Shown here: piece by piece, positions 2,642 through 48,356 of the stretch | Position numbering within the stretch: the stretch's first letter is position 1 | Layout of the letters: each line of letters opens with the position of its first letter | Assembly: GCA_964532285.1 (NCBI GenBank) | Contig: CAZHHB010000005.1 | Coordinates: 1 to 60,060 of the forward strand | Reading direction: 5' to 3' | DNA length: 60,060 bases | DNA from: an uncultured Candidatus Saccharibacteria bacterium | GTDB lineage: Bacteria; Patescibacteriota; Minisyncoccia; Phycocordibacterales; PALSA-1337 | The notes under the pieces: model-generated | The model's database searches: none | What the model saw: the letters and a program-made list of their open reading frames with translations, nothing else | What the model was told of the DNA's origin: nothing | Translations under genes and position numbers: made by a program

Positions 2642-3571
2642 TCACTCCCCACAAATCATACATACAACCGCCCCATTAAATTCAAAATCTCTATAAACTG
2701 CCTGCATCGTACCAGCCACAGACAGAGCACTATTGACTGATATTCTAAGCCCTGTATGTTTTTCTGTCATTTCTTGTGCCATCTCTATGCCCTCGTTCGT
2801 AACTACCCAGCCATATCCACCAGTCTCTTTGACCAATGGGATAAGGGTTGGTTTGCGATTGGCCGTAATGTCGACGATTGCATCGGCCATAGACTTCTCA
2901 TCTGGTCCGTCGTAGTTTTCAAAGTCATCAGTCAGGGGATGGCATGAAGAAGTCTGAACAATATGGATCTGCGCCGTGGATTTCTCATCTTTAAAATGAT
3001 TGGCCAATGCCTGGGCTGTAGTCCCTGACGAGGTGCCTATGAATACGGCCGCGATATTTCCGATGGCGGCAAGTTCCTCGGCTAGACTTTTATAGCCTTC
3101 GAGGGCAATGTCGTCAGTAGACTGACGGAGGCTTCGCATGCCATCTTCTACGGCCAAAGTAAGAGCTTGGATAGGCCTCTCTTTCTTGAGTATGCGTATG
3201 TCTGCGTTCTCAAGATTTTTGAGTTTTTCTAGTTTGCGTGTCGCTATGTGTTGTCCCACGAATATATCTAGTTCAATTTGTCTCGGATCGCCGGACTGTT
3301 TCAGGTTTCTTATTTCATCATTCAATCTATTCACATGTAGAGCGGCGGCAAGAGCTGCATTACCAGAAGAAGAGATGGCAAAACGATGGTCACCTTTTGT
3401 ACGATAATGATCAATCATGAACGGGATAGAGCGTCCTTTGTGAGAGCCAAGGGGGTGTAGATCTTCGCGTTTGAAATATAAATCAGGCAGACCAAGGGCC
3501 TTGGCAAGAGATGGGTAATGTTCTGTTGGGGTGATCGCCGTGTTATTCATGATATTCCTCGTGGTTGTCAT
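2642..3571 (-). CDS. Fold-type II PLP-dependent enzyme (Trp-synthase beta / threonine dehydratase-like superfamily)
   Basis: 309 aa. YFKREDLHPLGSHKGRS (putative PLP lysine), SSSGNAALAAA and a GTSSGTT glycine loop. Confidence 0.6.
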   Translation of the reverse strand: MTTTRNIMNNTAITPTEHYPSLAKALGLPDLYFKREDLHPLGSHKGRSIPFMIDHYRTKGDHRFAISSSGNAALAAALHVNRLNDEIRNLKQSGDPRQIELDIFVGQHIATRKLEKLKNLENADIRILKKERPIQALTLAVEDGMRSLRQSTDDIALEGYKSLAEELAAIGNIAAVFIGTSSGTTAQALANHFKDEKSTAQIHIVQTSSCHPLTDDFENYDGPDEKSMADAIVDITANRKPTLIPLVKETGGYGWVVTNEGIEMAQEMTEKHTGLRISVNSALSVAGTMQAVYRDFEFNGAVVCMICGE

Positions 3572-3676: not shown

Positions 3677-3874
3677 ATGATGTATTCTCAAAACTTCAAA
3701 TCTATGAACACACTTTTGATTTGTCCAGAATGTAAAAATACTGTGGATTTATCCAAGTATCCAAATTTGGTTATGGGCATGGTGGTTGAATGCAATCACT
3801 GCGGTATGACTTTGTTAGTTAAGGAAATGGGGGACAAAGAAATCAAGACAGTTATCGTTGATGAGGGAAAATAA
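3677..3874 (+). CDS. LysW-like zinc-ribbon protein (amino-group carrier protein-like)
   Basis: 65 aa. CPEC...(18 aa)...CNHCG zinc ribbon with an acidic C-terminus VIVDEGK, matching LysW length and layout. The start may instead be the Met at 3704. Confidence 0.45.
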   Translation: MMYSQNFKSMNTLLICPECKNTVDLSKYPNLVMGMVVECNHCGMTLLVKEMGDKEIKTVIVDEGK

Positions 3875-3882
3875 TAGGGTAT

Positions 3883-4048
3883 GTCCGGTAAATAAGTTCT
3901 CGAGACAGCCGAGGACATGTCTGAGCGCAGTAGAAATTGCTTGGTAAAAGGCGAATGTCGTTGGAATTATTCATAATTCCTGAGCCTTTTACCTAGCAAT
4001 TTCACGGAGCGAGTACCGCAGGCTGGCGAGAGGATTTATTTACCGGAC
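3883..4048. repeat. Nested palindrome element B: 114-nt core (3909-4022) inside the locus-specific IR gtccggtaaataa/ttatttaccggac
   Basis: The core is the reverse complement of 54283-54396 with a single mismatch. It has an internal 20-bp stem and an 8-bp stem. Confidence 0.9.
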
Positions 4049-5494
4049 TAGTTTCACGATCTCCTCGATCATACCCCTGAATCCGTGTGCTCCTAGAAAT
4101 ACAATGGCGTCGCCTTTTTTTGCCTGAGAAATCAGATATTTCACAAGGTCCGCGTCATCTTCAATGTATTTGACATTTGGATGAGTCTCGAAGATAATTG
4201 TCGCCAATTCAGCACCATCGATCGGCTGATTGGATTCGTTATCCGCCGTCTTCAATTTCGTCAGCCGTGGGATTATTACGGTATCGGCATCAGCAAAAGC
4301 ATTTTTATATTTGACCAGTGATTCTCTGCTACGACCCCCCATATTTGGTTCAAAGATAGCGATGATGTCACCAGTGTATGTTGATTTCAAAGTTTGTAAT
4401 ACCGCTGAAGCTTTCTCTGGAGAATGGGCGATATCATCAAATACCGTCACATCTCCATCTGACCGTTTCTCCAGGCGACGTTTTAGTCCCTTGAATGAGT
4501 TGATAGCAGCAATTATCTTGTCTGTGGCAACTCCCAACTCGCGTGCCATAGCGAAACACCCAGTGATATTTTCTGATTGATAAAGTCCAAGCATTGGAGA
4601 GTGAACTCTATATTTATTGCCATTATGAGATATGGTTAGCTCCAGACCATCTCTCGTTTGAACAGCATTTTCATAAGAATATTCTGGAGATATATTTCGA
4701 GATTCGAACTCAAGATCCGATCTTGGAAATCTGGCGCGTCCGTATTTGATGACCTTGCCTGCATATGAAGCCAGTGTCTCTTTGACACCTGGATTGTCTA
4801 TACACGCCAATACCAATCCCGTGGGCGATAACATCTCTAGAAGTTTTTTGAAAGCATTGAAATAATCTGATTCGGTGGGATATAAGTCAGCATGATCCCA
4901 CGAGACAGCCGTTAGGAGTAAATGCGTGGGTCTGTAATGAAAGAATTTGGCACGTGGTTCGGTCGGGGAGCTTTTGTATTCATCTCCTTCCAATACACTG
5001 AAATTTCCATTACCGATACGGGCCGAAGAGCCATGAGAAAGAGAAATACCACCGAACATATAAGTCGGATCTAGGAAGGCGTGATCCAGGATGTGAGACA
5101 AAAGGGCGGTGGAAGAAGTCTTGCCCCAAGTCCCAGTACATACGATAGAATTTTCCTTGATGAAGTATTTTCCCAATATCTCTGGATAGGAATAGCGGGG
5201 GATATTTTGTCCCTCGGCATACAGAGTTTCAGGATTTTTTGTGCCAGAAGCAGCACCGACGATCACAAGATCTGGTCTGTCATCGGCAACCATCTTGTCT
5301 GGATGCCAACCGGCATAAAAGTTTATGCCGTGTTTTTCCAATTCCGTGGAAACTGGTGGAAAGAATCCTTTGTCACTACCAGTCACAGTCACACCCTTTT
5401 CTTTGAAGGCAATAGCCACGGCGCTCATAGCTACACCACAAATACCTATTACATGTATACGCTTTGGTAAAGCCGATTCAGGTGAATTATTCAT
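4040..5494 (-). CDS. Mur ligase, MurC/Mpl type (UDP-MurNAc--L-Ala or tripeptide ligase)
   Basis: 484 aa. N-terminus RIHVIGICGVAMSAVA...GSDKGFFPPVSTELEKHGI resembles the Mpl/MurC N-domain. GTWGKTS P-loop. Confidence 0.8.
   Translation of the reverse strand: MNNSPESALPKRIHVIGICGVAMSAVAIAFKEKGVTVTGSDKGFFPPVSTELEKHGINFYAGWHPDKMVADDRPDLVIVGAASGTKNPETLYAEGQNIPRYSYPEILGKYFIKENSIVCTGTWGKTSSTALLSHILDHAFLDPTYMFGGISLSHGSSARIGNGNFSVLEGDEYKSSPTEPRAKFFHYRPTHLLLTAVSWDHADLYPTESDYFNAFKKLLEMLSPTGLVLACIDNPGVKETLASYAGKVIKYGRARFPRSDLEFESRNISPEYSYENAVQTRDGLELTISHNGNKYRVHSPMLGLYQSENITGCFAMARELGVATDKIIAAINSFKGLKRRLEKRSDGDVTVFDDIAHSPEKASAVLQTLKSTYTGDIIAIFEPNMGGRSRESLVKYKNAFADADTVIIPRLTKLKTADNESNQPIDGAELATIIFETHPNVKYIEDDADLVKYLISQAKKGDAIVFLGAHGFRGMIEEIVKLVR
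4711..4726. repeat. Short palindromic unit caagatccgatcttgg inside the Mur ligase CDS
   Basis: Read on the minus strand as ttc cca aga tcg gat ctt gag = FPRSDLE. Confidence 0.85.
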
Positions 5495-6147
5495 GCTTTC
5501 ATCTTATCAGATGAGAGGATTTTCTTCACGGCAGCTAGGTCTGTAGACCATTTTTTCTCATCGTACCATTCCAACCCTTCGAACTGTAACTTATAAACAT
5601 CTCCAAGCCGTTGCAATGAACCAAGATAGATGTATTTTAAGCCTAGATCTTTTGCATAAGTAATTGCACGGAGCATCATCCCCATTCCCATATCGTTTGG
5701 TGCCTTATTCAAATCATAAAATGGATATGAATAATGTAATAATGTCGATCCAACAAAGCATATGGCATAACCAATATCTGAATATGTAAACAAGGTATTC
5801 CAATTGCTATTTTCTCTGTCGGTGAGCATTTCTTTTATTTTTTGAGCGCTCATTATCTTTGGGCCAAATTTGGATTCATAGAAATCTTTGGCAAGTTTGC
5901 CGATGCTGTAGTTGTAGTTTTTTAACGGCAAATTTTCTACAACCATGACTAGGTCATCAGTCTTTTTCAAAATACGACGGTTCTCACTTGTAAGTTCAAA
6001 CTTCGACAGATCAATACGCACGCTTCTGGTCTGTTGCATAATACCTCTACCCAAGCGCGTGAAGACATATCCGTCATCATACATCTTGATAATGTTTTTG
6101 TCCGTGAAATCTGTTATTGTTTTTTCATTCCATTTAAGATAAGACAT
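5491..6147 (-). CDS. ATE_C-like (arginyl-tRNA-protein transferase / Bpt-like) GNAT-fold aminoacyl transferase
   Basis: 218 aa. HYSYPFYDLNKAPNDMGMGMMLRAITYAKDLGLKYIYLGSLQRLGDVYKLQFEGLEW fits the ATE C-terminal pattern (FYDP...G...YLGY...YK..F.P.E). Overlaps the Mur ligase start by 4 nt. Confidence 0.5.
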   Translation of the reverse strand: MSYLKWNEKTITDFTDKNIIKMYDDGYVFTRLGRGIMQQTRSVRIDLSKFELTSENRRILKKTDDLVMVVENLPLKNYNYSIGKLAKDFYESKFGPKIMSAQKIKEMLTDRENSNWNTLFTYSDIGYAICFVGSTLLHYSYPFYDLNKAPNDMGMGMMLRAITYAKDLGLKYIYLGSLQRLGDVYKLQFEGLEWYDEKKWSTDLAAVKKILSSDKMKA

Positions 6148-6149
6148 CT

Positions 6150-7349
6150 TTAGTGAAGGGCTAACCAGAATCCGAAAATGACGAATACAAAATGAACAAC
6201 CCAGAATCTCATCACGGTCTTCTCCTCACTCCATCCGATGAGTTCAAAATGGTGATGTAGGGGAGCCATGCGGAATACTTTACGACCGAATATATACTTG
6301 GAGACAATCTGGATTATGACTGATAGAGCTTCGACATAGAAGATGAATCCTAGGAACAATAGAGCACTAGTTTCTCCTATGGCCATAGCATTCACTGCCA
6401 GCAGAGCACCAAGTCCTAGGGACCCCACATCTCCCATCATAAATCTGGCAGGTTTGATATTGAAATAAGTATAAGTGATCAGAGCTCCAACAGTCGTAGC
6501 GTTTAGTATGGCGACTTCGCCGAAACCATTGATCCAAGACAGTATCATGAGAGAACTGAAAGTTATTATGAGTGAACCTCCAGCCAGACCGTCCATGCCG
6601 TCGGCTATGTTTACAGCATTAGCAGTAAACATGACGATGAATATGATGATCGGTACGACGAAAATACCAGCGTTTATACTGATATCGAAAGGTAGATATA
6701 TGAAATGCCAAGCGGGTCCTAGCTTCGCATAAATCCACCAGGCTGTTAGTGTTCCGGCGATAAATTGCAGAACAAGTTTTTCGTGCACGAATATACCTTT
6801 TTGTGTGCGTGACCCAAACCAGACGGACAATCTCTTGAAAGCTGTCCATGGAAGAGTGACAAAGAGCCAGATTCGCGTAGGCCATTCTTTGTGGACACGG
6901 ATGAGAGTCAATACATGCCCAAGTTTTCTGGAGCGACGTTCTTTGCCAAAAACATTTAACAGATCATCTAGGGCCCCCAAGGTGGCGGAGAAAAGCATGA
7001 CGCCTATCGGCACCCAGGTAAAGCTTCTAGACCAATTGAAAAAATAAGTCAGGATAGCCACAGTGATGACGATGAGGAGTCCTCCCATAACTGGTGTGGT
7101 GGCCTTGTAGGCATGTGATCCGAGATTGACGAGTTCGGTCTTGGCCCCTTTTATGACATTGAATCTATAGAGGGCTTTAGACAGAATCGGTGCCCAGACG
7201 AAGGCGGCAATGGTCCCCAAGAGTGCAAAACTGAGGATATAAGCCAAATCCGCGGTGCCTTGTAGAATGGTAATCATTGTATAAACGATACCATGAAATT
7301 GGAGAAAATGGGAGTAATTACTAACCGAACCAAACAAAACTAAAACCAC
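6150..7349 (-). CDS. mraY: Phospho-N-acetylmuramoyl-pentapeptide transferase
   Basis: NAVNIADGMDGLAGG, MGDVGSLGLGALLA, MAPLHHHFELIGWSEEKTVMRFW. The longest ORF starts at GTG 7349; an alternative ATG lies at 7277. Confidence 0.9.
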   Translation of the reverse strand: MVLVLFGSVSNYSHFLQFHGIVYTMITILQGTADLAYILSFALLGTIAAFVWAPILSKALYRFNVIKGAKTELVNLGSHAYKATTPVMGGLLIVITVAILTYFFNWSRSFTWVPIGVMLFSATLGALDDLLNVFGKERRSRKLGHVLTLIRVHKEWPTRIWLFVTLPWTAFKRLSVWFGSRTQKGIFVHEKLVLQFIAGTLTAWWIYAKLGPAWHFIYLPFDISINAGIFVVPIIIFIVMFTANAVNIADGMDGLAGGSLIITFSSLMILSWINGFGEVAILNATTVGALITYTYFNIKPARFMMGDVGSLGLGALLAVNAMAIGETSALLFLGFIFYVEALSVIIQIVSKYIFGRKVFRMAPLHHHFELIGWSEEKTVMRFWVVHFVFVIFGFWLALH

Positions 7350-8176
7350 TTCAGTCTTCGGATTTCTGTTTTTGAATTTTGTGCGCGAACGAATAGACGG
7401 TTGTCATTGTTGGTACGACCTTCTTCAGTCCACGCGGCTTCGGTGATAGATCCGTCTGGATTCATGACCTCTATTCCGCCCTGACGAATACCCGTCCCAT
7501 AAATACCGTCTTCTGGGTATGCGACGGCGTGTGAATAATGGATCTTTGTTGGAATGAAGTTTTGGTATTCGACTTGATGGATAATCAGAATATGATCTCT
7601 TTCATTCAGAGGATTGTTCTCAGGATTGATTGTATAAATATTCTTATCATTTAAACTCGTCATTGTGATCATGTCACCAGGTTGTACCTCTCGAATGGTG
7701 ATTGGTCTGCTATTTTTATCAGCGGCAAATGTAGAGACATCGCAATTCTCAACCGGGCGGAGAGAGCAGCGTATCTTGCCAATAACCCCTGAACAATTCA
7801 CGAATGAAATATGTTTGTCTAGTGATCCGTTGCCCCGCTCCTCGTTCTCGGCATTAAGAATATAATAAGCGAAACCGGAACACTCCACCCCGATATTATT
7901 ATCGGTTAATATCTTTTTAAGAGTTTGGCCGTCTAGATTCTTTGGATCAATACGATTCTTTATGATTATAGTTTCAACTTCTTCTAAGATATCATTAGGA
8001 CTGCCCTTGCCAATATTTGCGCGTAGAGCGGCTCGGGCACGAATAGTTTTGTTATTGAAATATGGTACAGAACATACAGCGTTACCTACTATGAAATGCA
8101 GATACTGTTCTATAACTGACAAACTGTGATTTGATAGAGTCTTTATATTCATATCTCTGGTTTTGTCAAATTTCAA
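7340..8176 (-). CDS. Putative NlpC/P60-like (papain-fold) peptidase
   Basis: 278 aa. GVECSGFAYYIL (Cys), QPGDMITM and DHILIIHQV (His) occur in the canonical NlpC/P60 order. The assignment is tentative. Confidence 0.4.
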   Translation of the reverse strand: MKFDKTRDMNIKTLSNHSLSVIEQYLHFIVGNAVCSVPYFNNKTIRARAALRANIGKGSPNDILEEVETIIIKNRIDPKNLDGQTLKKILTDNNIGVECSGFAYYILNAENEERGNGSLDKHISFVNCSGVIGKIRCSLRPVENCDVSTFAADKNSRPITIREVQPGDMITMTSLNDKNIYTINPENNPLNERDHILIIHQVEYQNFIPTKIHYSHAVAYPEDGIYGTGIRQGGIEVMNPDGSITEAAWTEEGRTNNDNRLFVRAQNSKTEIRRLKWF

Positions 8177-9443
8177 TTTTGAATTGAGAATCCTTTATTT
8201 TACTCAAGATTTCTCTCCCTTTTAAATTGAATACCCCATGATTTTCCATGATACTTACGGGGCTTTGGATACGGATGAGATCGGAATTGTATTCGGTGTT
8301 TTGGTAAATGATCACATCGTAGCCGGCCTTTTTTATAGTATCGCCAACATCATCGAAAACTCCTTGTATGCTTTTTGTAACCCGTTGAACAATTTGTGCC
8401 CCATCGTTTATCTCTATGAGTTCCTGATCGATAGGGAGGCCCAAGAGAGATCTTAGATGAGCTTCAAAAGAAGTCAGTCCGGGTCTGCCTTTTCTTCGCG
8501 TTTCTTCTTGTAGATGAGATTCGAAAGTTGTCGAAGCTGGTTGTCTGGCGTTAACTTCTATGAGATGGATGCGTCCATTCGAATTCTGTTTTATGACATC
8601 TATACCGAACAATCCACGCCACCCATCTGTCTGTAGCTTTTGTCCGACCTCTCTGGCTATATTTTGGATGTTCTGCTTGTCTTGTTCGTTTAAAAGAGTC
8701 GAAGCTAGTCCCCAGTCGTTACCAATGGTGCTGAATTCATTTTCTGTAAATGGAGCCAATCCTGTTATCTGATAGCTTATATTACCAACCAATATTTTGT
8801 CTGATGTCACAACAGAATTGACGGTATAAGATGCTCCTTGAACAAATGCGGAAAGTCTGGCCATCCTTTCTGGAAATTTTTCTTGTATAGATGCCAACTG
8901 TTCACGTGTTTTGACGAGAATCGTCCCGTCTCCGGTGTGTCCGTGAGACCATTGAATGATGAAGGGATCATTTTTCCACACGATACTTTTTACAATCTTG
9001 GTCACGTGCGACGGTAAATATTTTTGTCCGAGTTCATTAAGCCAGCGAATCTGACTTATTTTATTTTCTACTTTTTCGGAGAGGGAAGATTTCGGATTCA
9101 ATATGTTCCAGCCGTTACCCTGAGTAGCCGCTTCCACGCGCAAGGTGTTTTTGAAAACTAATATGGAGACCTGGATTTTTTCTCCAGAATCCGAAAGCTC
9201 TTCTTGCGCTTTGGATATTATAGATCTGGTTGTTGGATGATTGAGGAGTTCAGTTGTTCCTAACACCTTATCGTCGATCGGCTCTATCAATGTGATAAAA
9301 TCCGGGTATTGTTTCTGGGCGCTTTCTCCGTATGTGGTTCTGTTTGAGATTATCAGATAGTCTCTGCTCGGAACTACTCCTAAGGCCCGCTCTATTTCCC
9401 TGGTCACATATATGATTTTTTTACCTTGAAATGTCATGCTCAT
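8166..9443 (-). CDS. ATP-grasp domain ligase
   Basis: 425 aa. WRGLFGIDVIKQNSNGRIHLIEVNARQPAS is a typical ATP-grasp C-terminal motif. Overlaps the downstream gene by 11 nt. Confidence 0.7.
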   Translation of the reverse strand: MSMTFQGKKIIYVTREIERALGVVPSRDYLIISNRTTYGESAQKQYPDFITLIEPIDDKVLGTTELLNHPTTRSIISKAQEELSDSGEKIQVSILVFKNTLRVEAATQGNGWNILNPKSSLSEKVENKISQIRWLNELGQKYLPSHVTKIVKSIVWKNDPFIIQWSHGHTGDGTILVKTREQLASIQEKFPERMARLSAFVQGASYTVNSVVTSDKILVGNISYQITGLAPFTENEFSTIGNDWGLASTLLNEQDKQNIQNIAREVGQKLQTDGWRGLFGIDVIKQNSNGRIHLIEVNARQPASTTFESHLQEETRRKGRPGLTSFEAHLRSLLGLPIDQELIEINDGAQIVQRVTKSIQGVFDDVGDTIKKAGYDVIIYQNTEYNSDLIRIQSPVSIMENHGVFNLKGREILSKIKDSQFKIEI

Positions 9444-9567
9444 AGTCTAGTGTTTTGTGTGGAAGTTCGCAAGCGCCATCCATTCTTCCCTAAATGGATG
9501 GCGTCCTGAACGAAGTGAAGGATGTTCTATATTTTTAATAAAAAACCACACGGACCGCATCAGCGTA

Positions 9568-10002
9568 TCAGTGTGGCAAGACTCCTTTTCTGAGGAGTTT
9601 TTCCAAAGAACAGACATCCATACCTCTGTAGGATAGGATACAGATTTGCCCATTAGACTTGAGGAGAAGAACTCCCTCAGCGCTATTATCTGTTATCACC
9701 TCTGGGTTTTTGAGGGCATGTGGCGACGTCGAACCATTTATCGATTTGATGATTGGAATATCATCATTCGTTATCAAGGGTTCAACAAGACTGAGCTTGT
9801 CTCCATCTGTCGACGCTCTTTCGAACCGACATTCTTCAACGACATTCAAGTACAGTTCTTTGCTATTGCCATCTGATTCCAGTGATATAGCATGCAATCT
9901 GCCAGCAAACCAACCAAAGCCGTTGAAGATTCTCACGATGACGATCTTCAAGGGTCCGGTGAATGGTTCAAGATCGGTCACCATCAAAGGTTTTGTATTC
10001 AT
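9568..10002 (-). CDS. hypothetical protein
   Basis: 144 aa with a strong Shine-Dalgarno sequence (aaAGGAGaaactgagtcATG). The competing plus-strand ORFs are low-complexity. Confidence 0.5.
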   Translation of the reverse strand: MNTKPLMVTDLEPFTGPLKIVIVRIFNGFGWFAGRLHAISLESDGNSKELYLNVVEECRFERASTDGDKLSLVEPLITNDDIPIIKSINGSTSPHALKNPEVITDNSAEGVLLLKSNGQICILSYRGMDVCSLEKLLRKGVLPH

Positions 10003-10044
10003 GACTCAGTTTCTCCTTTCTAGCATAATCCTATCATCATAAGC

Positions 10045-10050
10045 TATAAT
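10045..10050 (+). promoter_or_regulatory. -10 box TATAAT 9 nt upstream of the ATG at 10060
   Basis: aagcTATAATggcaacatcATG; no Shine-Dalgarno sequence. Confidence 0.35.
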
Positions 10051-10059
10051 GGCAACATC

Positions 10060-10311
10060 ATGTCAAAGAGACAAGTCATAATGATACTCGGTGTTTGGGT
10101 GGCCGTTTTCCTGTTCCTAGGTTTCCCTACGGGCTGGGACAAGATACTGGCTGTTCTGACAGGGGTGATTATCACCGGTATATCTTATAAGAGTTTATCG
10201 CGAGATACTGGCGGCGCAACCAACCCCACTGGCAAATCCAACGTATCCATGAATAAGGACGTTCCGTATGTTGAATACAGGGCGGGGGAAATTAATAAAA
10301 TCAATCCATAG
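10060..10311 (+). CDS. small membrane protein
   Basis: 83 aa with two hydrophobic helices (VIMILGVWVAVFLFLGF, ILAVLTGVIITGI). Confidence 0.5.
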   Translation: MSKRQVIMILGVWVAVFLFLGFPTGWDKILAVLTGVIITGISYKSLSRDTGGATNPTGKSNVSMNKDVPYVEYRAGEINKINP

Positions 10312-10319
10312 AAATCATA

Positions 10320-11516
10320 ATGATGCGATTCTGGAAAGAGTACGGAGCGACGCGAGTGATCGCGATTCTGGTGGTCATTTGTTTGATTATTTTGATCGGT
10401 GTTCTGGTGATATGGTTTTCTCCATATGCAAAGGTGGTATATCCGAATAGCCAGCAAGGGGCAGTTGCTGTCGGAGATACTTCTAGAGATATTGTGTATC
10501 ATCTTCCTACACCCAAACCGTTGAAGGCTGTGTATATGAGTAGTTGGGCGGCCGGTAATGATAAATTCAGGAAACATCTCTTCGATCTCGTAGATACTAC
10601 AGAGATAAATGCTGTGGTAATAGATATCAAAGACTACACTGGTAGGATTAGTTTCCGTGTGGAAGATTCATTTTTGAATGAAATTGGTTCTTCGGAAAAT
10701 CGTATCTCAGATATCAAAGATTTTATTTCGAAATTACATGAAAAGAAAGTGTATGTGATCGGACGCATATCTTGTTTCCAAGACTCATATCTAGTGAAGG
10801 TTCGTCCAGATTGGGCTGTGAAGTCACAACAGGGTGGAGTATGGGCTGATTACAAAGGAGTGAAATGGCTGGATGCTGGAGCAAAGCCTGTGTGGGATTA
10901 TTTGGTCGCTATTGGTAAACAATCTTACGCCTACGGGTTTGACGAATTAAACTTTGATTACATTCGCTATCCTTCTGATGGTGATATGACCGATGTTTTT
11001 TATTCTTGGGATGATGGGTTTACTAGGCAGGAGGTGATGAAATCGTTCTTTATGTATTTGAGAGAAAGTTTTGATGGTACGAATATTCCATTATCCATAG
11101 ATCTCTTCGGTCTGACTACCAGTGCTTCCGGCGATCTTGGTATTGGTCAGAGTCTCATAGACGCTCTGCCTTATTTTGATTATGTCTCTCCAATGGTATA
11201 TCCGTCACATTTTGCTAAGGGATTCCTCGGTTTTCCGAAGCCTGCAACACACCCGTATGAGGTTATTAAAAGCTCTATGGATAGTGCTATATCTAAAGCT
11301 AATATAGCTTCCTCTAGTCCAGAAAAAATTAGACCATGGTTGCAGGCCTTTGATCTGGGGGCTGTTTATACTCCAGCTATGGTGCGCGCGCAAATACAAG
11401 CTACCTATGATTCGGGGCTGGATAGTTGGATGTTGTGGAATGCGGCGAGTGTCTATGATAAAGAAGGATTGATTTCGAAAGAGGCTGTCCAAGGTCCGAC
11501 CTCGGACAAAATATAA
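10320..11516 (+). CDS. Putative glycoside hydrolase, TIM-barrel DUF4015/GHL-type, N-terminal membrane anchor
   Basis: 398 aa. TEINAVVIDIKDYTGRISF and FDELNFDYIRYPSDG resemble the putative glycosyl hydrolase domain family. Confidence 0.55.
   Translation: MMRFWKEYGATRVIAILVVICLIILIGVLVIWFSPYAKVVYPNSQQGAVAVGDTSRDIVYHLPTPKPLKAVYMSSWAAGNDKFRKHLFDLVDTTEINAVVIDIKDYTGRISFRVEDSFLNEIGSSENRISDIKDFISKLHEKKVYVIGRISCFQDSYLVKVRPDWAVKSQQGGVWADYKGVKWLDAGAKPVWDYLVAIGKQSYAYGFDELNFDYIRYPSDGDMTDVFYSWDDGFTRQEVMKSFFMYLRESFDGTNIPLSIDLFGLTTSASGDLGIGQSLIDALPYFDYVSPMVYPSHFAKGFLGFPKPATHPYEVIKSSMDSAISKANIASSSPEKIRPWLQAFDLGAVYTPAMVRAQIQATYDSGLDSWMLWNAASVYDKEGLISKEAVQGPTSDKI
11486..11509. repeat. Short palindromic unit (24-mer tgtccaaggtccgacctcggacaa), identical to 40552-40575
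   Basis: Encodes the last residues (QGPTSDK) of the 10320..11516 CDS. Confidence 0.9.
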
Positions 11517-12007: not shown

Positions 12008-13888
12008 ATGGACGAGAATAGAATTACATATTTCGCAGAGACTGATGCCCGCAATAAGCGAGTGAAATTTGGCATCAAAGCAAAAGATAGAACCCGACAT
12101 GTCTATGTGATCGGGAAGACCGGTATGGGCAAATCAACCATGCTGGAGAACATGGCTGTGCAGGACATCATGAACGGCGAAGGGATGGCTTTCATTGATC
12201 CTCACGGCAAGACTGCAGATCTATTACTTGAATATGTTCCCAAGGAACGCATACGCGATGTTATATACATTGCGCCATTTGATGTTGAACATCCTATTTC
12301 ATTCAATGTTCTGGAAAGTGTAGACAGAGACAAACGTCATCTAGTTTCATCAGGCTTGATGAGTACCTTCAAAAAGATCTGGGAAGATGCTTGGTCAGCG
12401 CGTATGGAATATATTCTGACAAACACTCTTTTGGCTCTTCTGGAATATCCTGGGTCAACTCTCTTGGGTGTCAACAGGATGCTTTCAGACAAAGAGTATA
12501 GGAAGGATGTTGTTGCGCATATTCAGGATCCATCAGTCAAAGCTTTTTGGGTCAAAGAATTTGCGAATTATACCGAGCGTCAAGCGGCCGAGGCTGTGCC
12601 TGCTATTCAGAACAAGGTCGGTCAATTCACCGCCAATCCACTCATCAGGAATATGATTGGTCAGCCAAATTCCTCTTTTGATTTTCGTAAAGCTATGGAT
12701 GAACGCAAGATTATCATTATCAACCTTTCAAAAGGGAAGATCGGCGATGAGAATATGAAACTTCTAGGAGGACTCCTCGTGACGAAGATTTATCTCGCTG
12801 CTATGTCACGAGCTGATGTGCCAGATAGGATCATGAAAGTCCTGCCAAATTTCTATCTGTTTGTAGACGAATTCCAAAATTTCGCGAACGCTTCGTTCGC
12901 AGACATACTCTCAGAAGCCAGAAAATATAAACTCAATCTAACCATCGCCCACCAATACATAGAACAGATGGATGAGATCGTTCGTCCGGCAGTATTTGGC
13001 AACGTCGGCACAATGATCGCTTTCCGTGTGGGGGCAACGGACGCCGAGGAATTGGAAAAAGAATTTGCCCCTGTCTTTGTTTTGGAAGATTTGGTCAATC
13101 TGGGCTTTGCTCAAATATATCTGAAATTGATGATTGATGGTTTGTCATCTTCGCCATTTTCTGCGACGACATTGCCGCCTATTGCTCATCCAGACACATC
13201 TTATGTCAAAGAGATTATAGATGTCTCGCGAGAACAATATGCCAAACCAAGAGCTGAGGTTGAAGTGGATATTATCAAATTCCATGAACCGACAGTGAAG
13301 AAGGTAGAAGTGATTAAGGGGCAGGTTGCGGAAGTCCCCCAGAGACGTACGCCGTCGTCGCTTGCTAGCGACGCGGCTCGTTCTCAGCCGCCTGCGCGGC
13401 TTCCGAAAGCCGTCTCTGAAGGACTTCCGCAACCTGCCCCAACCTCAACTTCTTCCGTTCCCGTACCACCGAAAATTCAATCGGCAACAACAAACCCAGT
13501 AACACCTTCAAAGGCCTCACCGGTGCCAGTTCAACCTCCACCGACACCTTCCAAGCCCATATCAGCACCTGTACAAACCAAGCCTATAATTTCCAATACA
13601 AATAATGTTTCTATTCCACTAGCGACACTTTCACCTAGACCCCCTTCACAGAGGACTGATCACAAGGTCCAGTCATCAGGAAATGTTAACGATTTACGAA
13701 ATGCTTTGCAGGCAGTCTTGAAGAAATCCGCACCAACATCTACAACACCTTCATTACCATCGTCTACTCCGGGTGTTTCGAATACTACCAAATTCACCCA
13801 AAAGTCTTCCGGAACAGCGTCATCTGATAGTAAACCCGCGAATGAAGTACCTAGAGATGTTCTTGAGAAGGTATTGAAAGTTGACTGA
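12008..13888 (+). CDS. TraD/TraG/VirD4-family P-loop ATPase (T4SS coupling-protein-like) with a Pro/Ser/Thr-rich C-terminal tail
   Basis: 626 aa. Walker A VIGKTGMGKST, Walker B FYLFVDEFQNF, LTIAHQY. The last ~190 aa are low-complexity P/S/T-rich. Confidence 0.7.
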   Translation: MDENRITYFAETDARNKRVKFGIKAKDRTRHVYVIGKTGMGKSTMLENMAVQDIMNGEGMAFIDPHGKTADLLLEYVPKERIRDVIYIAPFDVEHPISFNVLESVDRDKRHLVSSGLMSTFKKIWEDAWSARMEYILTNTLLALLEYPGSTLLGVNRMLSDKEYRKDVVAHIQDPSVKAFWVKEFANYTERQAAEAVPAIQNKVGQFTANPLIRNMIGQPNSSFDFRKAMDERKIIIINLSKGKIGDENMKLLGGLLVTKIYLAAMSRADVPDRIMKVLPNFYLFVDEFQNFANASFADILSEARKYKLNLTIAHQYIEQMDEIVRPAVFGNVGTMIAFRVGATDAEELEKEFAPVFVLEDLVNLGFAQIYLKLMIDGLSSSPFSATTLPPIAHPDTSYVKEIIDVSREQYAKPRAEVEVDIIKFHEPTVKKVEVIKGQVAEVPQRRTPSSLASDAARSQPPARLPKAVSEGLPQPAPTSTSSVPVPPKIQSATTNPVTPSKASPVPVQPPPTPSKPISAPVQTKPIISNTNNVSIPLATLSPRPPSQRTDHKVQSSGNVNDLRNALQAVLKKSAPTSTTPSLPSSTPGVSNTTKFTQKSSGTASSDSKPANEVPRDVLEKVLKVD

Positions 13889-13908
13889 AGGTGTGGAAGT
13901 ATGAAGAC

Positions 13909-15090
13909 ATGAATCCTTGCCGTATCCTTATATTCTCAACAGTTTACTACCCACGCTTTATAGGCGGGGCTGAGGTCGCTGTCAAAGAGATAACGGATAG
14001 AATTTCTCCTCAAAATATAGAGTTTGATATAGTGACACTGAGATTAGATTCCAGCCTGCCCAGATATGAAAAGATCGGTAATGTAAATGTGTATCGCGTC
14101 GGTTGGTCTTCTCGTCGCAACACATCACCGGATTCGCTATCGTGGTATTTACATTTGAATAAGTACGCTTTTCTCTTGACTGGTTTTTTGAAAGCCATTT
14201 CTCTCAACAGAAAGAGGAAGTACAATACCATCTGGTCTCTTATGGCAAGTTACAATTCGTTTGCGGCTATCTTCTTTAAGCTCACTCATCCGCGCATCAG
14301 GTTCATCTTCACTCTTCAAGATGGAGATCCTATACCTTATCTGAAGAAGCGTGCTCGACCATTGTATCCATTTTTTAGAATGTTTTTCACCAAGGCCGAT
14401 CATATCCAAGCCATTTCAAATTATCTGGCTGATTGGGCAAAAGATATGGGAGCAAGATGTCCTGTGAGCGTTGTACCAAATGCTGTAGATTACGATTTAT
14501 TTTCAAAAACTTATTCTACGACAGAGCTCGAGACTCTCAAAAAGTCTCTTGGGAAAAAAGACGGAGACGTTTTCCTTATCACGACTTCTCGGCTAGTCGC
14601 AAAAAATGGCATAGGAGATATTATAAATGCTCTTTCTTTTTTACCTTCCAATGTCAAACTGATAATCCTCGGTCAAGGCTATCAAGAAGATATATTGAAA
14701 TCACAGACGTCCAGATTGAAACTAGAAGATCGTGTTCGATTCATGGGTTTTATTACTCATGAGAAAATGCCGCAATATTTACAGATTTCTGATATCTTCA
14801 TCCGTCCAGCTCTTTCAGAGGGTTTGGGCAATTCATTTCTCGAAGCCATGGCGGCAGGGATTCCCATCATAGGAACACAGGTCGGAGGTATACTGGATTT
14901 TCTGAAAGATGGCGAAACAGGTTTATTCTGCGAAGTACAAAACCCAAAGAGTATTGTTCAAAAAATTGAAAAGCTGATGAAGGATAGGGAATCGCGAGAT
15001 TATATTGTAAAACAAGCGAGAAGTTTGGTGGAGAGAAAATATCAATGGGAAAAGATTGCGAAAGATATGGAAGGTATATTGAGATCATAA
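13909..15090 (+). CDS. Glycosyltransferase family 4
   Basis: EGLGNSFLEAMAAGIPIIGTQVGGILDFLKDGETG (GT4 E-x7-E region). The ATG at 13909 is preferred over the GTG at 13891. Confidence 0.8.
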   Translation: MNPCRILIFSTVYYPRFIGGAEVAVKEITDRISPQNIEFDIVTLRLDSSLPRYEKIGNVNVYRVGWSSRRNTSPDSLSWYLHLNKYAFLLTGFLKAISLNRKRKYNTIWSLMASYNSFAAIFFKLTHPRIRFIFTLQDGDPIPYLKKRARPLYPFFRMFFTKADHIQAISNYLADWAKDMGARCPVSVVPNAVDYDLFSKTYSTTELETLKKSLGKKDGDVFLITTSRLVAKNGIGDIINALSFLPSNVKLIILGQGYQEDILKSQTSRLKLEDRVRFMGFITHEKMPQYLQISDIFIRPALSEGLGNSFLEAMAAGIPIIGTQVGGILDFLKDGETGLFCEVQNPKSIVQKIEKLMKDRESRDYIVKQARSLVERKYQWEKIAKDMEGILRS

Positions 15091-15105
15091 TACATCATAT
15101 AACAT

Positions 15106-16200
15106 ATGAATAAGTGTAATAAAATTTTAATTGCTACGGGCATATATCCTCCAGAAATAGGTGGACCGGCCACATATGCGGAGATGATGGCGCGAGAATT
15201 GCCTAAGCGGGGAATTGCGGTAGGCATCCTACCTTTTAGGGAGGTGCGTGGATACCCGAAAGTCTTTAGGCACATTATGTATTTCTTTAAGGTTATAAGA
15301 CTCTCGCGTGAGGCTGATATTATATTTACTCAAGATCCGGTAAGCACAGGTGTGCCAGTCATATTCGCTTCATGGTTCACTGGTAAAAAAGTCGTTATGC
15401 GTGTCGCTGGTGATTATGCTTGGGAACAGGCGCGACAAAGATTTGGCGTTGCTGACTCCATAGATGATTTCCAGGACAAAAAATATGGATTGAGGGTTGA
15501 ATTGTTCAGATGTCTGCAGAGATTTTCTGTCAAACACGCTGGTGTGGTTATTACCCCGAGTAATTATTTCAATAGACTTGTAAGTGGTTGGTTAAAAAAT
15601 AAAAAAGAGATAAAGACCATCTATAATGGTATAGAGTTAAGTGATGCTTTTGAGAAGGCTCCAAAATATACAGACAAAACCATTATCACAGCAGGACGAA
15701 TGGTTCCGTGGAAAGGATTTGATGTGCTTATAAAAATTTTAGGGAAGTTGCCGGATTGGAGGCTGATCATCGCTGGTGATGGGGCTGATAAGGAAAGATT
15801 GGTTGATTTGGCTAAGCAAGCTGGAGTGGAGAAAAGAGTTGAGTTTACGGGTAATATTCCTCGCACGGAATTATTCTCAAAGATATATCGTTCTCATATC
15901 TTTGCTCTGCTTACGACTTTTGAGAGCTTTTCATTCCAGACAGTTGAAGCGATGCATGTGGGTGTGCCTGTGATCGCTTCCAATATCGGTAATCTGTCTG
16001 AAATCATAGATGATGGTAAGAATGGTGTCTTGGTAAATCCTACAGATGAAGATGGTGTCCGCGCTTTGATTGAAAAGATTGGTAGGGAGAATGGATATGC
16101 TGAAGCTTTGTCGCGCGAAGCTATTTTCAAAGCCAAGGATTTCTCTATAGAGAAGACTTTGAATAGTCTGATTGATGTATTTAATGAATGTGTTAAATAA
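15106..16200 (+). CDS. Glycosyltransferase family 4
   Basis: ESFSFQTVEAMHVGVPVIASNIGNLSEIIDDGKNG. Confidence 0.8.
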   Translation: MNKCNKILIATGIYPPEIGGPATYAEMMARELPKRGIAVGILPFREVRGYPKVFRHIMYFFKVIRLSREADIIFTQDPVSTGVPVIFASWFTGKKVVMRVAGDYAWEQARQRFGVADSIDDFQDKKYGLRVELFRCLQRFSVKHAGVVITPSNYFNRLVSGWLKNKKEIKTIYNGIELSDAFEKAPKYTDKTIITAGRMVPWKGFDVLIKILGKLPDWRLIIAGDGADKERLVDLAKQAGVEKRVEFTGNIPRTELFSKIYRSHIFALLTTFESFSFQTVEAMHVGVPVIASNIGNLSEIIDDGKNGVLVNPTDEDGVRALIEKIGRENGYAEALSREAIFKAKDFSIEKTLNSLIDVFNECVK

Positions 16201-16201
16201 T

Positions 16202-17317
16202 ATGAAACTTATAATACTTTCAATTGATCATAATTTGTTGAACAGAGAAAGTGCAACTTCTCTGCGCATGTCACATTATGGTACATATGTTGGAGAAATA
16301 GATGTTATTTTAGTTGGAGCCTCCGGTGAGTCTTTGAACCTCAGTCAAAATGTGAGAGTTTATCCGGTTGCCGGTACCAATAAGGCATCTAGTTCATTCA
16401 AGGCTTTATCTTTGGCCAGACAGCTTGTGAAATCAGACACGGTTATAGTTGTCCAAGATCCATTTGAGATGGGATTGTGGGGTTTGGTTGTCTCGTGGAT
16501 CACCAAGTGTCCATTAAATGTTCAAATTCATATAGATTTCTTCAGCCCGTACTTCAGGAGACAGTCTGTCCGTCAGTATCTGCAATCAATGATAGCTCCG
16601 TTTGTTTTGCGTCGTGCTGATTCTGTAAGAGCTGTCTCTGGGAAGATTGCTGAATATTTGAAAGATGAATTGGGCGTCGATGCCAAGAAGATTACCATCG
16701 CTCCGGTATTTGTAGATTTGAATATTATTAAGAATAAATCAGTGACGATAGATCTGCACAGTAAATTTCCACAGTTTGATTGGATAATCTTGGTGGCCTG
16801 TCGTTATGTAAAACAAAAGAATATACCGTTGGCTATAGAAGCATTTGAAATATTCAAAAAGACTCACCCGAAAGCAGGTTTGGTGATTGCTGGTTCTGGG
16901 CCTGAAGAATCAACAATCAAGGAGATTGTGGTTGAAAAAGACCTTGAAGAATCGGTCAAGATCGGATCTTGGGCAGATGAATTCGCTTCTTGTATGAAAA
17001 CTTGCGATACATTCCTATTGTCCTCTGATTATGAAGGTTGGGGAATGACGGTCATAGAGGCGGCCAGTCTCGGCAAGCCAGTAATCATGACTGATGTCGG
17101 GTGTGCCAATGAGTTCTTGATACATGAGAAGGATGGATTGATCGTACCGACCCGTGACCCTGAAGCCTTGGCGGTGGCTATGTCCAAATATTATGACAAT
17201 CGTGCCTTTGCTAAAAATATGGGGCTGGCGGCAGAGCGCAGCGCTTCAACTTATATGACCATGGAAGAAAATGATATGCTCATGAAGAAGTCGTGGGAGT
17301 CAGCTGTGAGAATATAG
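16202..17317 (+). CDS. Glycosyltransferase family 4
   Basis: EGWGMTVIEAASLGKPVIMTDVGCANEF. Start taken at MKLIILS. Confidence 0.8.
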   Translation: MKLIILSIDHNLLNRESATSLRMSHYGTYVGEIDVILVGASGESLNLSQNVRVYPVAGTNKASSSFKALSLARQLVKSDTVIVVQDPFEMGLWGLVVSWITKCPLNVQIHIDFFSPYFRRQSVRQYLQSMIAPFVLRRADSVRAVSGKIAEYLKDELGVDAKKITIAPVFVDLNIIKNKSVTIDLHSKFPQFDWIILVACRYVKQKNIPLAIEAFEIFKKTHPKAGLVIAGSGPEESTIKEIVVEKDLEESVKIGSWADEFASCMKTCDTFLLSSDYEGWGMTVIEAASLGKPVIMTDVGCANEFLIHEKDGLIVPTRDPEALAVAMSKYYDNRAFAKNMGLAAERSASTYMTMEENDMLMKKSWESAVRI

Positions 17318-17331
17318 TATTGAATATTATT

Positions 17332-18366
17332 ATGAATCTACTTATTTTTACTCAAAAAGTTGATTTGAACGATACGGTCCTGAGCTTTTTCCATCGCTGG
17401 ATTATAGAATTGGCCAAACATTTCAATCAGGTAACGGTCATTTGTCTATACAAGGGGAAGTCAGAATTACCATCCAATATCCGAGTTTTTTCACTTGGTA
17501 AAGAGTCAGGAGAATCAAGATTGAAATATCTGATCAATTTCCTTCGTTATATTATCCGACTCAGGAGAGATTACGATGTAGTTTTTGCACATCAAAATCA
17601 AGAATATCCAATTCTTGGAGGCATTATCTGGAAACTTCTGGGTAAGAGGGTCTACATGTGGCGTAATCATTATGCCGGTAGTTTGCTTACAGATGTGGCG
17701 GCACTCTTTTGCGACAAAGTTTTCTGTACATCGAGGTACTCATATACAGCTAAATACAAGAAGACGGTGTTTATGCCCGTAGGTATTGATACAGAAATGT
17801 TCAAACAAGATTCATCTGTGAAGCGTGTGCCGAATTCCGTCCTTTCCATCGGTCGCATATCTCCGTCCAAGAAGCTAGAACAATTCATTGAAGCATTAGA
17901 TACGGTAAAGAAAAATGGTTTTGATTTCACTGCTTCAATCGTGGGAGACGCATTACCGGAACACGAGAGTTATTATAAATCTCTCAAGGACAAGGTAAAT
18001 AAATTAGACTTGAATTCACGGATTGTATTTGTCGCTGGTGTGCCAAATGATAAAACGCCTGAAGTTTATTCCGCCCATAACATATTTGTAAATTTAAGTA
18101 AGAGTGGAATGTTGGACAAAACCATCTTTGAAGCTATGGCTTGCGGATCCATTGCAATCTCATGTAACAAAGATTTGATAGGCAAGATTGATACGGAGTA
18201 TTCATTCAGAGAAGATGATGTTGATGATCTAGCGGCAAAAATATCTGGTGTGCTCGGATTAGAACCGGAAGAATTGAAAGTACGCGGGGAGAAGTTGAGG
18301 AAGTTCGTCGTGGAAAATCATAGTCTAGCAACGCTAGCCAGTAAGTTAAAAGAAGAAATGTCATGA
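17332..18366 (+). CDS. Glycosyltransferase (GT4-like)
   Basis: GMLDKTIFEAMACGSIAISCN with GT-B length. Start taken at MNLLIFTQK. Confidence 0.65.
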   Translation: MNLLIFTQKVDLNDTVLSFFHRWIIELAKHFNQVTVICLYKGKSELPSNIRVFSLGKESGESRLKYLINFLRYIIRLRRDYDVVFAHQNQEYPILGGIIWKLLGKRVYMWRNHYAGSLLTDVAALFCDKVFCTSRYSYTAKYKKTVFMPVGIDTEMFKQDSSVKRVPNSVLSIGRISPSKKLEQFIEALDTVKKNGFDFTASIVGDALPEHESYYKSLKDKVNKLDLNSRIVFVAGVPNDKTPEVYSAHNIFVNLSKSGMLDKTIFEAMACGSIAISCNKDLIGKIDTEYSFREDDVDDLAAKISGVLGLEPEELKVRGEKLRKFVVENHSLATLASKLKEEMS

Positions 18367-20566: not shown

Positions 20567-20571
20567 GGTGA

Positions 20572-20640
20572 AAGTTCGGTGAATGTGTGTCCCCCTCGGA
20601 ACGGAACATGTTCCTCGGAAGACACACATTCACCGAACTT
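20572..20640. repeat. Perfect 20-bp inverted repeat around a 29-nt palindromic centre (nested palindrome G)
   Basis: aagttcggtgaatgtgtgtc (20572-20591) pairs with gacacacattcaccgaactt (20621-20640). The centre contains ggaacatgttcc and two cctcgg motifs. Confidence 0.9.
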
Positions 20641-20653
20641 AAATAAACATAAT

Positions 20654-48242: not shown

Positions 48243-48316
48243 CCAAATGATGGCGACGGCTGTACTCATAAAATTTAGACATTTTATTTGGAGCTCACAC
48301 CCGTCGCCATCATTGG
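48243..48316. repeat. ~16-bp inverted repeat with an inner 7-bp hairpin (nested palindrome H)
   Basis: ccaaatgatggcgacgg ... ccgtcgccatcattgg, with inner ataaaat/attttat. It lies upstream of murB. Confidence 0.8.
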
Positions 48317-48356
48317 GCGCAAATTGAGCGTGAACTTAGGAGATAATTTTACTTAC

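Follow-up and report, generated by a model that had tools for sequence, protein, structure and literature searches.

The window described here is a stretch of 60,060 nucleotides (positions 1 to 60,060 of contig CAZHHB010000005.1, termed contig C5 below) from the genome of an uncultured Candidatus Saccharibacteria bacterium (assembly GCA_964532285.1; 805,730 bases in 18 contigs, rated 100% complete). Close homologues of its proteins are labelled Candidatus Taylorbacteria, Paceibacterota or Parcubacteria. Within the window, the gene for MraY is surrounded by genes for a ligase resembling Mpl and MurC, an aminoacyl-tRNA transferase resembling the ATE (arginyltransferase) and Bpt enzymes, an NlpC/P60 hydrolase, an ATP-grasp ligase, a fold-type II pyridoxal phosphate (PLP) enzyme and a small zinc-ribbon protein that is a candidate carrier (together, the module), and these are flanked by a degenerate MurD-like gene (Table 1). 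The cytoplasmic Mur pathway, in which the precursor of peptidoglycan is made, belongs to textbook biochemistry and serves as a drug target, and to our knowledge few natural departures from it have been described (MurD2/MurL and Mpl salvage). It is somewhat probable (roughly 60%) that the module bypasses the first two steps of stem-peptide synthesis, those of MurC and MurD, and the supply of D-glutamate is probably bypassed as well. The initial annotation of this locus had recognised that genes for wall precursors are mixed here with non-canonical enzymes which form and cut peptides, and that view is upheld; its suggestion of a modified side chain or stem peptide, read as a decoration of an otherwise normal Mur pathway, is not, as MurC and MurD are missing or degenerate.

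Table 1. Features of the module locus, with positions in the window (aa, amino acids; ORF, open reading frame).
Feature	Position	Strand	Basis
Degenerate MurD-like gene, possible relic, 439 aa	1160..2479	+	TIGR01087 113.7 bits, altered motifs
Fold-type II PLP enzyme, 309 aa, module member	2642..3571	-	PF00291 116.6 bits
LysW-family zinc-ribbon mini-protein, 65 aa, candidate carrier	3677..3874	+	PF21344, PDB LysW matches
Mpl-like UDP-MurNAc ligase ("MurC*"), 484 aa	4040..5494	-	Three Mur-ligase domains; closest PDB match 3hn7
ATE/Bpt-like aminoacyl-tRNA transferase, 218 aa	5491..6147	-	PF04377, predicted fold
MraY	6150..7349	-	PF00953 82 bits; probable start near 7277
NlpC/P60 cysteine hydrolase, likely cytoplasmic, 270-278 aa	7340..8176	-	Fold match; probable start 8152
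ATP-grasp ligase, 423-425 aa, not Ddl	8166..9443	-	PF02655 43 bits, model
Pair of overlapping ORFs (68 and 144 aa), unconserved, probably not genes	9447..9653 and 9568..10002	-	No family match

The relationship between the module and the loss of MurD was followed through an even sample of 401 genomes of the phylum, in which MurD was called at E <= 1e-30 (the tally includes an unpublished MurD-positive genome, G184, on which none of the conclusions depends). MurD is present in 324 of these genomes and absent from 77; the ATE-like gene is present in 19 and the P60 gene in 19, with 18 genomes having both. None of the 20 module genomes (the 19 ATE-positive genomes and G083), which are spread over eight families, has MurD. 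This anticorrelation has a Fisher probability of 5e-16 when kinship is ignored, a value that overstates the case because related genomes are not independent. In a set of 22 chosen genomes, the five that lack the module have a canonical MurD scoring over the cut-off, and the rest do not. Since every occurrence of the module goes with missing or degenerate forms of canonical MurC and MurD, its accessory genes most likely replace these enzymes, rather than decorate their product.

The gene order, which the initial annotation had put forward for a survey of related genomes, is conserved. In nine of ten genomes of the same genus it runs RadC, small ORF, MurD-like gene, PLP enzyme, zinc ribbon, ligase, ATE, MraY, P60 and ATP-grasp, and beyond the ATP-grasp gene there follow DUF4015, VirD4-like and family 4 glycosyltransferase (GT4) genes. 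In 80 further species of the window's own group, which were located through the P60 protein, the ATP-grasp gene was found in 78, MraY in 77, ATE in 75, the ligase in 66, the PLP enzyme in 62, the carrier in 62 and the MurD-like gene in 58, the shortfalls being largely due to short contigs, or to contig ends that cut through the locus. With changes in gene order, the module recurs in at least eight families of Patescibacteria, including families of other classes. Families f46 and f119 retain the order seen in the window (ATP-grasp, P60, MraY, ATE and ligase, with carrier and PLP enzyme) at 30-60% identity, and in families f60 and f83, where identity is 21-41%, the order is MurE, ATE, ligase, P60, MraY, PLP enzyme, ATP-grasp, the set lying inside the division and cell wall (dcw) cluster, downstream of ftsI and murF. 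In genome G083 the order is ligase, PLP enzyme, ATP-grasp, P60, MraY, without ATE, and in G413 the genes are scattered as pairs. The pairs that recur are ATE with ligase, P60 with MraY, PLP enzyme with ATP-grasp, and zinc ribbon with PLP enzyme. Some neighbours have become a single protein: G337 has ATE and ligase in one ORF of 688 amino acids (ATE_C plus the three Mur domains), G118 has ligase and P60 in one ORF of 695 amino acids, and in G182 the ligase and P60 matches lie within one open frame of 704 amino acids, which is probably a fusion also.

In several genomes module genes are split: MraY in G017 (locus L019) and G016 (L023), the ligase and the PLP enzyme in G001 (L018), P60 in G083 (L092), and ATE in G003 and G016. 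These may be assembly frameshifts or cases of real decay. Locus L092 of G083 also has, at 9960-10316, a gene of the 23S-rRNA-intervening-sequence-protein or bAvd-like kind between the ligase and PLP genes.

What has become of MurD can be seen beside the module in the window's own genus. The MurD-like gene shares 30% identity, along its full length, with canonical MurD of genomes from the same order; its score on TIGR01087 lies under the cut-off of 212 bits, and it has no match to Mur_ligase_M. The P-loop, which is GTRGK[ST]TT in canonical MurD, reads G[VISM][CA]GK[AS][TS] (GVCGKAT in the window), the Glu of the LELDS motif has been replaced and a nine-residue segment (DDHLNYYKG) has been deleted, with the C-terminal domain being kept. 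Judged by its sequence, the gene is a true descendant of MurD; its product may be a catalytically impaired relic, or a binding protein put to another use as a pseudoenzyme or scaffold. Identity across the genus is 57-72%, and the other module lineages are without such a gene.

The remainder of the wall pathway is encoded on scattered contigs: MurA, MurB, MurE, MurF, Ddl, Alr, MurG and FtsI are all present, MurF being downstream of mraZ-rsmH-ftsI. A check for ddl, murE and murF elsewhere in the genome, proposed in the initial annotation, found all three. A recognisable Mur-ligase central domain occurs in three proteins of the genome only, i.e., MurE, MurF and the ligase of the module. Neither glutamate racemase (MurI) nor a D-amino-acid transaminase was found in the genome. 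Loss of MurI was considered as the event that drove acquisition of the module, and was rejected, as searches of 31 relatives, some carrying the module and some not, found MurI in none. MurB lies in the same window as the module but 40 kb from it (48288-49361; TIGR00179, 209 bits), and the wall genes are scattered, without a single dcw cluster. MurE (C1:143929-145221; locus L001, 7930-9222, minus strand) carries the sequence TNEDPYDEDP. The motif of MurE enzymes that use meso-diaminopimelate (DAP) is DNPR; with EDPY in its place, the residue at position 3 of the stem peptide may be one other than meso-DAP. A relationship of the module to the pseudomurein (pMur) clusters of archaea was also considered and rejected, as the pMur models gave 23-107 bits against cut-offs of 450-610, and because this is a bacterial genome with mraZ-rsmH-ftsI-murF.

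The enzyme which probably takes the place of MurC in these genomes is the ligase of the module. All three Mur-ligase domains are present (Pfam), yet its scores lie under the cut-offs of both equivalog models, being 259.2 bits for MurC (TIGR01082; cut-off 335.1) and 215 bits for Mpl (TIGR01081; cut-off 388.7). Its closest match in the PDB is the Mpl structure 3hn7 (177.6 bits, E 4e-51), the best MurC giving 136 bits. It is the sole enzyme of MurC/Mpl type in the genome. Each of the module genomes tested likewise has a single such ligase, with scores of 204-271 bits, compared with 368-464 bits for MurC from genomes of the candidate phyla radiation (CPR) that lack the module. Canonical CPR MurC is recognised by the motifs GTHGKTTTT and FQPHxxxRT, the second of which, the alanine-binding motif, is carried by all five canonical sequences; we take His376, Arg377 and Arg380 of Haemophilus influenzae MurC to fall within it. 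The module-type ligases (14/14) have G[TSN][YFW]GK and FEP... instead, without these His and Arg residues (FEPNMGGRS in the window). In H. influenzae MurC, it is these three residues of the C-terminal domain that bind the amino acid (PMC3060825). The protein of structure 3hn7 is the Mpl of Psychrobacter arcticus (PaMpl), which accepts L-Ala-D-Glu at a low rate (PMC3060825).

A maximum-likelihood tree, rooted on MurD, was built from 14 module-type ligases and five canonical MurCs (loci L056-L074). The 14 module-type ligases form one clade (97/96), apart from the five canonical MurCs (94/98). The ligase of the window clusters with those of f46 and f119, which are families of another class (100/100), rather than with those of G019 and G027, which belong to its own order; this hints that the whole module may have reached the window's genus by horizontal transfer. 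The module ligase is like Mpl in being a three-domain Mur ligase acting on UDP-MurNAc (MurNAc, N-acetylmuramic acid), in having 3hn7 as its closest solved relative, and in having an EP... motif where MurC has QPH..RT. It differs in scoring below the Mpl cut-off (215 vs 389) and in being linked or fused to ATE and P60. As it is the only UDP-MurNAc ligase of the genome, its role is expected to be biosynthetic, rather than in accessory recycling.

The P60 protein has no match to PF00877 in Pfam, and for P60, ATP-grasp and ATE alike, single-sequence and profile searches against the sequences of the PDB gave nothing significant; P60 and ATP-grasp were placed by structure prediction only. The AlphaFold2 model of P60 (built from 40 homologues; mean confidence score, pLDDT, 86) was compared with known folds in an all-against-representatives structure search. 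The best 24 matches are all NlpC/P60 proteins, mostly DL-endopeptidases of peptidoglycan, with MepS at the top (Z 10.8, root-mean-square deviation 3.3, 127 residues aligned) and with the YkfC-type 3h41 (Z 9.7) and the dipeptidyl-peptidase VI (DPP-VI)-type 3pvq (Z 8.7) also among the matches; Foldseek gave only weak papain-like matches to this model. The catalytic triad (Cys in CSG, His, and a second His in YxHS) is conserved across nine lineages, from the genus itself to lineages of only 21-30% identity, except for a Q in G413. No N-terminal signal-like segment is seen, the model showing a folded N-terminus of strands and a helix, and the protein is likely to be cytoplasmic. The predicted fold, the Cys-His-His triad and the likely location are all features of YkfC and DPP-VI. 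The module protein differs from them in that no solved P60 protein matches its sequence significantly, in its own N-terminal part (about 85 residues) and C-terminal W.E...RRL motif, and in being encoded beside MraY and sometimes fused to the ligase.

These likenesses open an alternative in which nothing is synthesised by a new route. Patescibacteria are widely held to be episymbionts of minimal biosynthesis, and the Mpl-like ligase could be a recycling enzyme, with P60 trimming murein peptides (L-Ala-gamma-D-Glu-X), imported from the host or derived from the cell itself, to L-Ala-D-Glu, or with whole peptides being attached; MurC, MurD and MurI would then have been lost as the host gives ready-made D-Glu, and the carrier, ATP-grasp, PLP enzyme and ATE would serve elsewhere. 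Mpl being the closest solved relative of the ligase fits with this, as do the fold matches of P60 to cytoplasmic peptidases that cut between gamma-D-Glu and a diamino acid, the fusion of ligase with P60, and genome G019, which has the ligase alone and lacks MurD. Such salvage leaves unexplained the strict co-occurrence of carrier, ATP-grasp, PLP enzyme and ATE, and the fusion of ATE with the ligase. Moreover, no peptide transporter or amidase is among the genes annotated in and around the module, apart from a transporter of the major facilitator superfamily beside the ligase of G083, and the canonical MurE has been kept, which means that whole tripeptides are not simply re-used. On balance salvage is improbable, and a biosynthetic bypass of MurC and MurD is preferred.

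In a bypass, the candidate for joining alanine to glutamate is the ATE-like transferase. It scores 24.6 bits on PF04377 (ATE_C; gathering score 25), its orthologues reaching 39.3 bits (G094) and 30.0 bits (G086), and it matches the arginyltransferase models of NCBIfam with E 5e-14, which is far under their cut-off. Its predicted structure superimposes on that of Bpt with a TM score of 0.79 over residues 3-213. The target of ATE and Bpt enzymes is an N-terminal Asp or Glu. The module protein resembles Bpt and ATE1 in its Bpt-like predicted fold and in its match to ATE_C, which falls just short of the gathering score in the window and exceeds it in the two orthologues; it differs in having no match to ATE_N in Pfam and no ClpS partner, since ClpS (PF02617) was not found in this 100%-complete genome, which makes a role in an N-degron pathway unlikely. 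The gene lies directly upstream of the ligase gene in all ATE-bearing lineages except G413, where the genes are scattered. A search with the ATE profile against representatives at 50% identity gave 475 clusters at E <= 0.001, among which fusions are rare. One distant ATE_C relative (P0507, 809 amino acids) is fused to PPDK_N and a PEP-utilizer mobile domain, without a ligase; PPDK_N is ATP-grasp-like, so P0507 may be a second pairing of an ATE-like domain with one of ATP-grasp type.

MraY, the next gene, is the sole copy in the genome and gives 182.3 bits on TIGR00445, the cut-off of which (192.05) is reached by no sampled genome of the same order. In the window's genus the match of MraY to the model is broken into two parts (model positions 27-88 and 86-315), and some 40 additional residues follow the DD motif; in relatives that lack the module the match is contiguous. 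The MraY of G094 (339 amino acids) seemingly has no insert, so the insert is not universal to module genomes.

The use of aminoacyl-tRNA for peptidoglycan precursors has a precedent in FemX, and this brings in the modified side chain that the initial annotation had suggested. ATE would add a branch at position 3, as FemX-like enzymes do, the ATP-grasp enzyme would add a D-amino acid that comes from the PLP enzyme (in the manner of a D-aspartate ligase), P60 would trim, and MurD would have been replaced by an enzyme that has escaped recognition. ATE, Fem and L/F transferases share a fold and use aminoacyl-tRNA, an ATP-grasp side-chain ligase is known (Aslfm), and the EDPY of MurE hints at a wall of the Lys or Orn type, in which branches are common. 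Decoration gives no reason why branch enzymes should be confined to genomes that lack MurD and have a ligase which is not MurC, nor why ATE should be adjacent or fused to the first ligase, rather than to MurE, MurF or MurG. Module genomes have only three intact Mur ligases, and so no further one that could add residue 2. Finally, a check for femX elsewhere in the genome came back empty: the FemAB domain (PF02388) was matched neither by the ATE-like protein nor by any other protein of the genome. The module transferase differs from FemX in its domain, and in being tied to the first ligase and to the loss of MurD, not to late branching. Decoration is thus still less probable than salvage, and replacement of MurC and MurD continues to account better for where ATE is found.

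The module also has a mini-protein. When small ORFs of the form CxxC...CxxC were sought in all module loci, every full-module lineage proved to have one small zinc-ribbon ORF beside the PLP gene; none was found in the module loci of G069, G086, G027 and G019. All 12 sequences match Zn_ribbon_LysW (PF21344; best E 1.2e-13), the window copy having 25.9 bits against a cut-off of 27, and the top PDB matches of the family profile are LysW structures (3wwl, E 2.5e-9; 5k2m). In the alignment of the 12 sequences the invariant columns are four Cys, one Gly and a terminal Lys, and no others, the tails being ..VDEGK, ..V[VM]DEGK, ..LMIEK, ..LYVQK, ..LLVEK, ..VEEEK and ..IEEEK. In LysW the carboxyl group of a C-terminal Glu (tail EDWGE) holds an amine. 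An invariant terminal Lys in this position suggests a tether of opposite polarity: an amine that would hold a carboxyl group.

The ATP-grasp enzyme is the candidate for loading such a carrier. Its AlphaFold2 model (pLDDT 92) has full-length fold matches, with Z from 28.5 to 22, to PurK (28.5), PurT, biotin carboxylase, the peptide ligase 8ynd, the L-amino-acid ligase 3vot and PylC (4ffl; Z 23.0); PurD is also among the 50 fold matches listed, and LysX is not. PylC is an ATP-grasp enzyme that acylates the epsilon-amine of lysine. That the protein might be a divergent Ddl was considered and rejected: it has no bacterial Ddl match, and the one TIGR01205 match of the genome is a canonical Ddl encoded on contig C6 (261 bits). 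The doubt entered by the initial annotation on this point, whether the enzyme was a plain Ddl orthologue, can be laid aside.

The PLP enzyme has only weak threonine-synthase-like matches (NCBIfam, PDB) besides its Pfam match. Its lysine motif (GSxKxR) and SSSGN motif are invariant in seven lineages and are compatible with a fold-type II enzyme of the racemase kind, such as serine racemase; no module protein matched a named epimerase family. The PLP gene adjoins the carrier gene, the ATP-grasp gene or both in every module lineage. With no MurI or D-amino-acid transaminase found, the PLP enzyme is a plausible candidate source of a D-amino acid, as the initial annotation had proposed.

In LysW systems an ATP-grasp enzyme (LysX) loads the carrier and a hydrolase (LysK) releases the product. 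The module resembles those of LysW and ArgW in having a homologous zinc-ribbon mini-protein whose tail is acidic and whose gene neighbours include an ATP-grasp ligase and a hydrolase that could release the product; it differs in its location among cell-wall genes, and in an ATP-grasp enzyme whose listed fold matches are of the PurK, PurT and PylC kind, not of the RimK or LysX kind. That carrier, ATP-grasp, PLP enzyme and P60 make an amino acid (e.g. the position-3 diamino acid) or a secondary metabolite, and merely happen to be located in a wall cluster, would suit a true LysW homologue, the typical pairing of ATP-grasp loader with release hydrolase and the atypical specificity motif of MurE, but is very improbable, as no candidate genes for a kinase, reductase or aminotransferase are seen within the module or next to it, the C-terminal residue of the carrier is Lys where LysW has Glu, and both the association with MurD loss and the fusions with the ligase would be coincidences.

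Regarding the layout of the locus, the initial annotation described six packed genes on the minus strand, with overlaps of 4, 10 and 11 nucleotides and a gap of 2 nucleotides. Five of these genes are real and conserved, with reading frames where it had placed them, and the family assignments it gave them (ATP-grasp, NlpC/P60, MraY, ATE-like, MurC/Mpl-type ligase) hold in profile searches, fold matches and orthologues, as do those of the flanking LysW-like carrier, fold-type II PLP enzyme and MurD-like ligase with its GVCGKAT P-loop in profile searches and alignment. The sixth, its hypothetical gene, is unconserved. The 4-nucleotide overlap of ATE and ligase and the 2-nucleotide gap between MraY and ATE are firm, with ATG starts from which relatives align from residue 1 to 3. 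The overlaps of 10 and 11 nucleotides depend on the most upstream GTG or TTG starts, and gene calls and alignments favour a later ATG: the P60 gene call in the database (P0121) begins at Met9 (8152), which gives a gap of 13 nucleotides in place of an overlap, and alignments of MraY relatives begin only at about residue 20-25. The ORFs at 9568-10002 and 9447-9653 have no match in Pfam or NCBIfam, and no tblastn match in ten loci of the same genus or the 80 loci of further species; from this they are probably not genes, and lie outside the module. A scan for promoters and terminators gave a signal no better than that of shuffled sequence. The module is followed in the window by a DUF4015 glycosyl-hydrolase-like membrane protein (10320-11516), an orphan VirD4/TraG-like ATPase (12008-13888) and a row of GT4 glycosyltransferases (13891-21595), and these genes adjoin the ligase even in G019 and G027, genomes of the same order which do not have the full module.

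A scheme can be drawn up in which each of the six putative parts of the module (lysine-tailed carrier, ATP-grasp ligase, PLP enzyme, ATE/Bpt-like transferase, cytoplasmic P60 and Mpl-like ligase) would have a place. In the first step, the ATP-grasp enzyme would link the gamma-carboxyl group of L-Glu, by an amide bond, to the epsilon-amine of the C-terminal Lys of the carrier. In the second, the PLP enzyme, for which the alpha-amine has to be free, would epimerise the tethered Glu to D-Glu. In the third, the ATE-like enzyme would add L-Ala from Ala-tRNA to the amine of the Glu. In the fourth, P60 would cut the gamma-D-Glu-Lys bond, which is the type of bond cleaved by its structural relatives. 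In the fifth, the Mpl-like ligase would join L-Ala-D-Glu, through the amine of its alanine, to UDP-MurNAc, either before or after release by P60. The canonical MurE, Ddl/MurF, MraY and MurG would then complete the precursor. The ATE-ligase and ligase-P60 fusions fit this scheme, as does the tolerance of PaMpl for L-Ala-D-Glu. What the data themselves establish are the identities of the proteins, the way they co-occur, their fusions, and that MurC and MurD have been lost or have decayed. The exact order of the steps, as set out here, is tentative and more apt to be wrong than right. The same doubt attaches to the scheme in its widest form, in which carrier-templated and partly tRNA-dependent synthesis of L-Ala-gamma-D-Glu would stand in for MurC, MurD and MurI across a considerable portion of the Patescibacteria.

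Several observations weigh against a bypass of this kind. Its steps are all inferred from the chemistry of the families concerned. The NCBIfam scores place the ligase nearer to MurC (259) than to Mpl (215), and among its listed fold matches the ATP-grasp enzyme resembles PurK and PurT, not the LysX and RimK enzymes that are the partners of LysW. In the sample of 401 genomes, 57 other MurD-negative genomes lie outside the module set. Purifying selection acts on the degenerate MurD within the genus, so the protein may still be active. MurI was likewise not found in genomes of the same order that keep MurD, so that its absence does not track the module. Furthermore, the components vary: G083 has all but ATE, G086 and G027 have only ATE and the ligase, and G019 has the ligase alone. 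As none of these variants has MurD, no single six-step scheme fits them all.

The full-text literature search found no paper that describes the module. The nearest published parallel is MurD2/MurL of Xanthomonas, where L-Glu is incorporated first and epimerised afterwards, MurD2 being a paralogue of MurD, while no known domain is recognised in MurL, an ATP-dependent epimerase (PMC8788868). That route replaces the canonical logic of MurD plus MurI in bacteria without enzymes that form D-Glu, as the module would also do; the difference is that the proteins of the module are entirely other ones, and that module genomes are without an intact MurD-type ligase.

In this large group of uncultured, ultra-small bacteria, the first two Mur ligases appear to have been replaced with other enzymes, including a carrier and a tRNA-dependent transferase. 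If true, this would be a new way of making a sequence of peptide bonds in primary metabolism, and a new role, with reversed polarity, for carriers of the LysW type. It would also correct automatic annotation, which now reads "MurC" and "arginyltransferase" for these genes, and would explain how the walls of these organisms come to have D-glutamate without a racemase.

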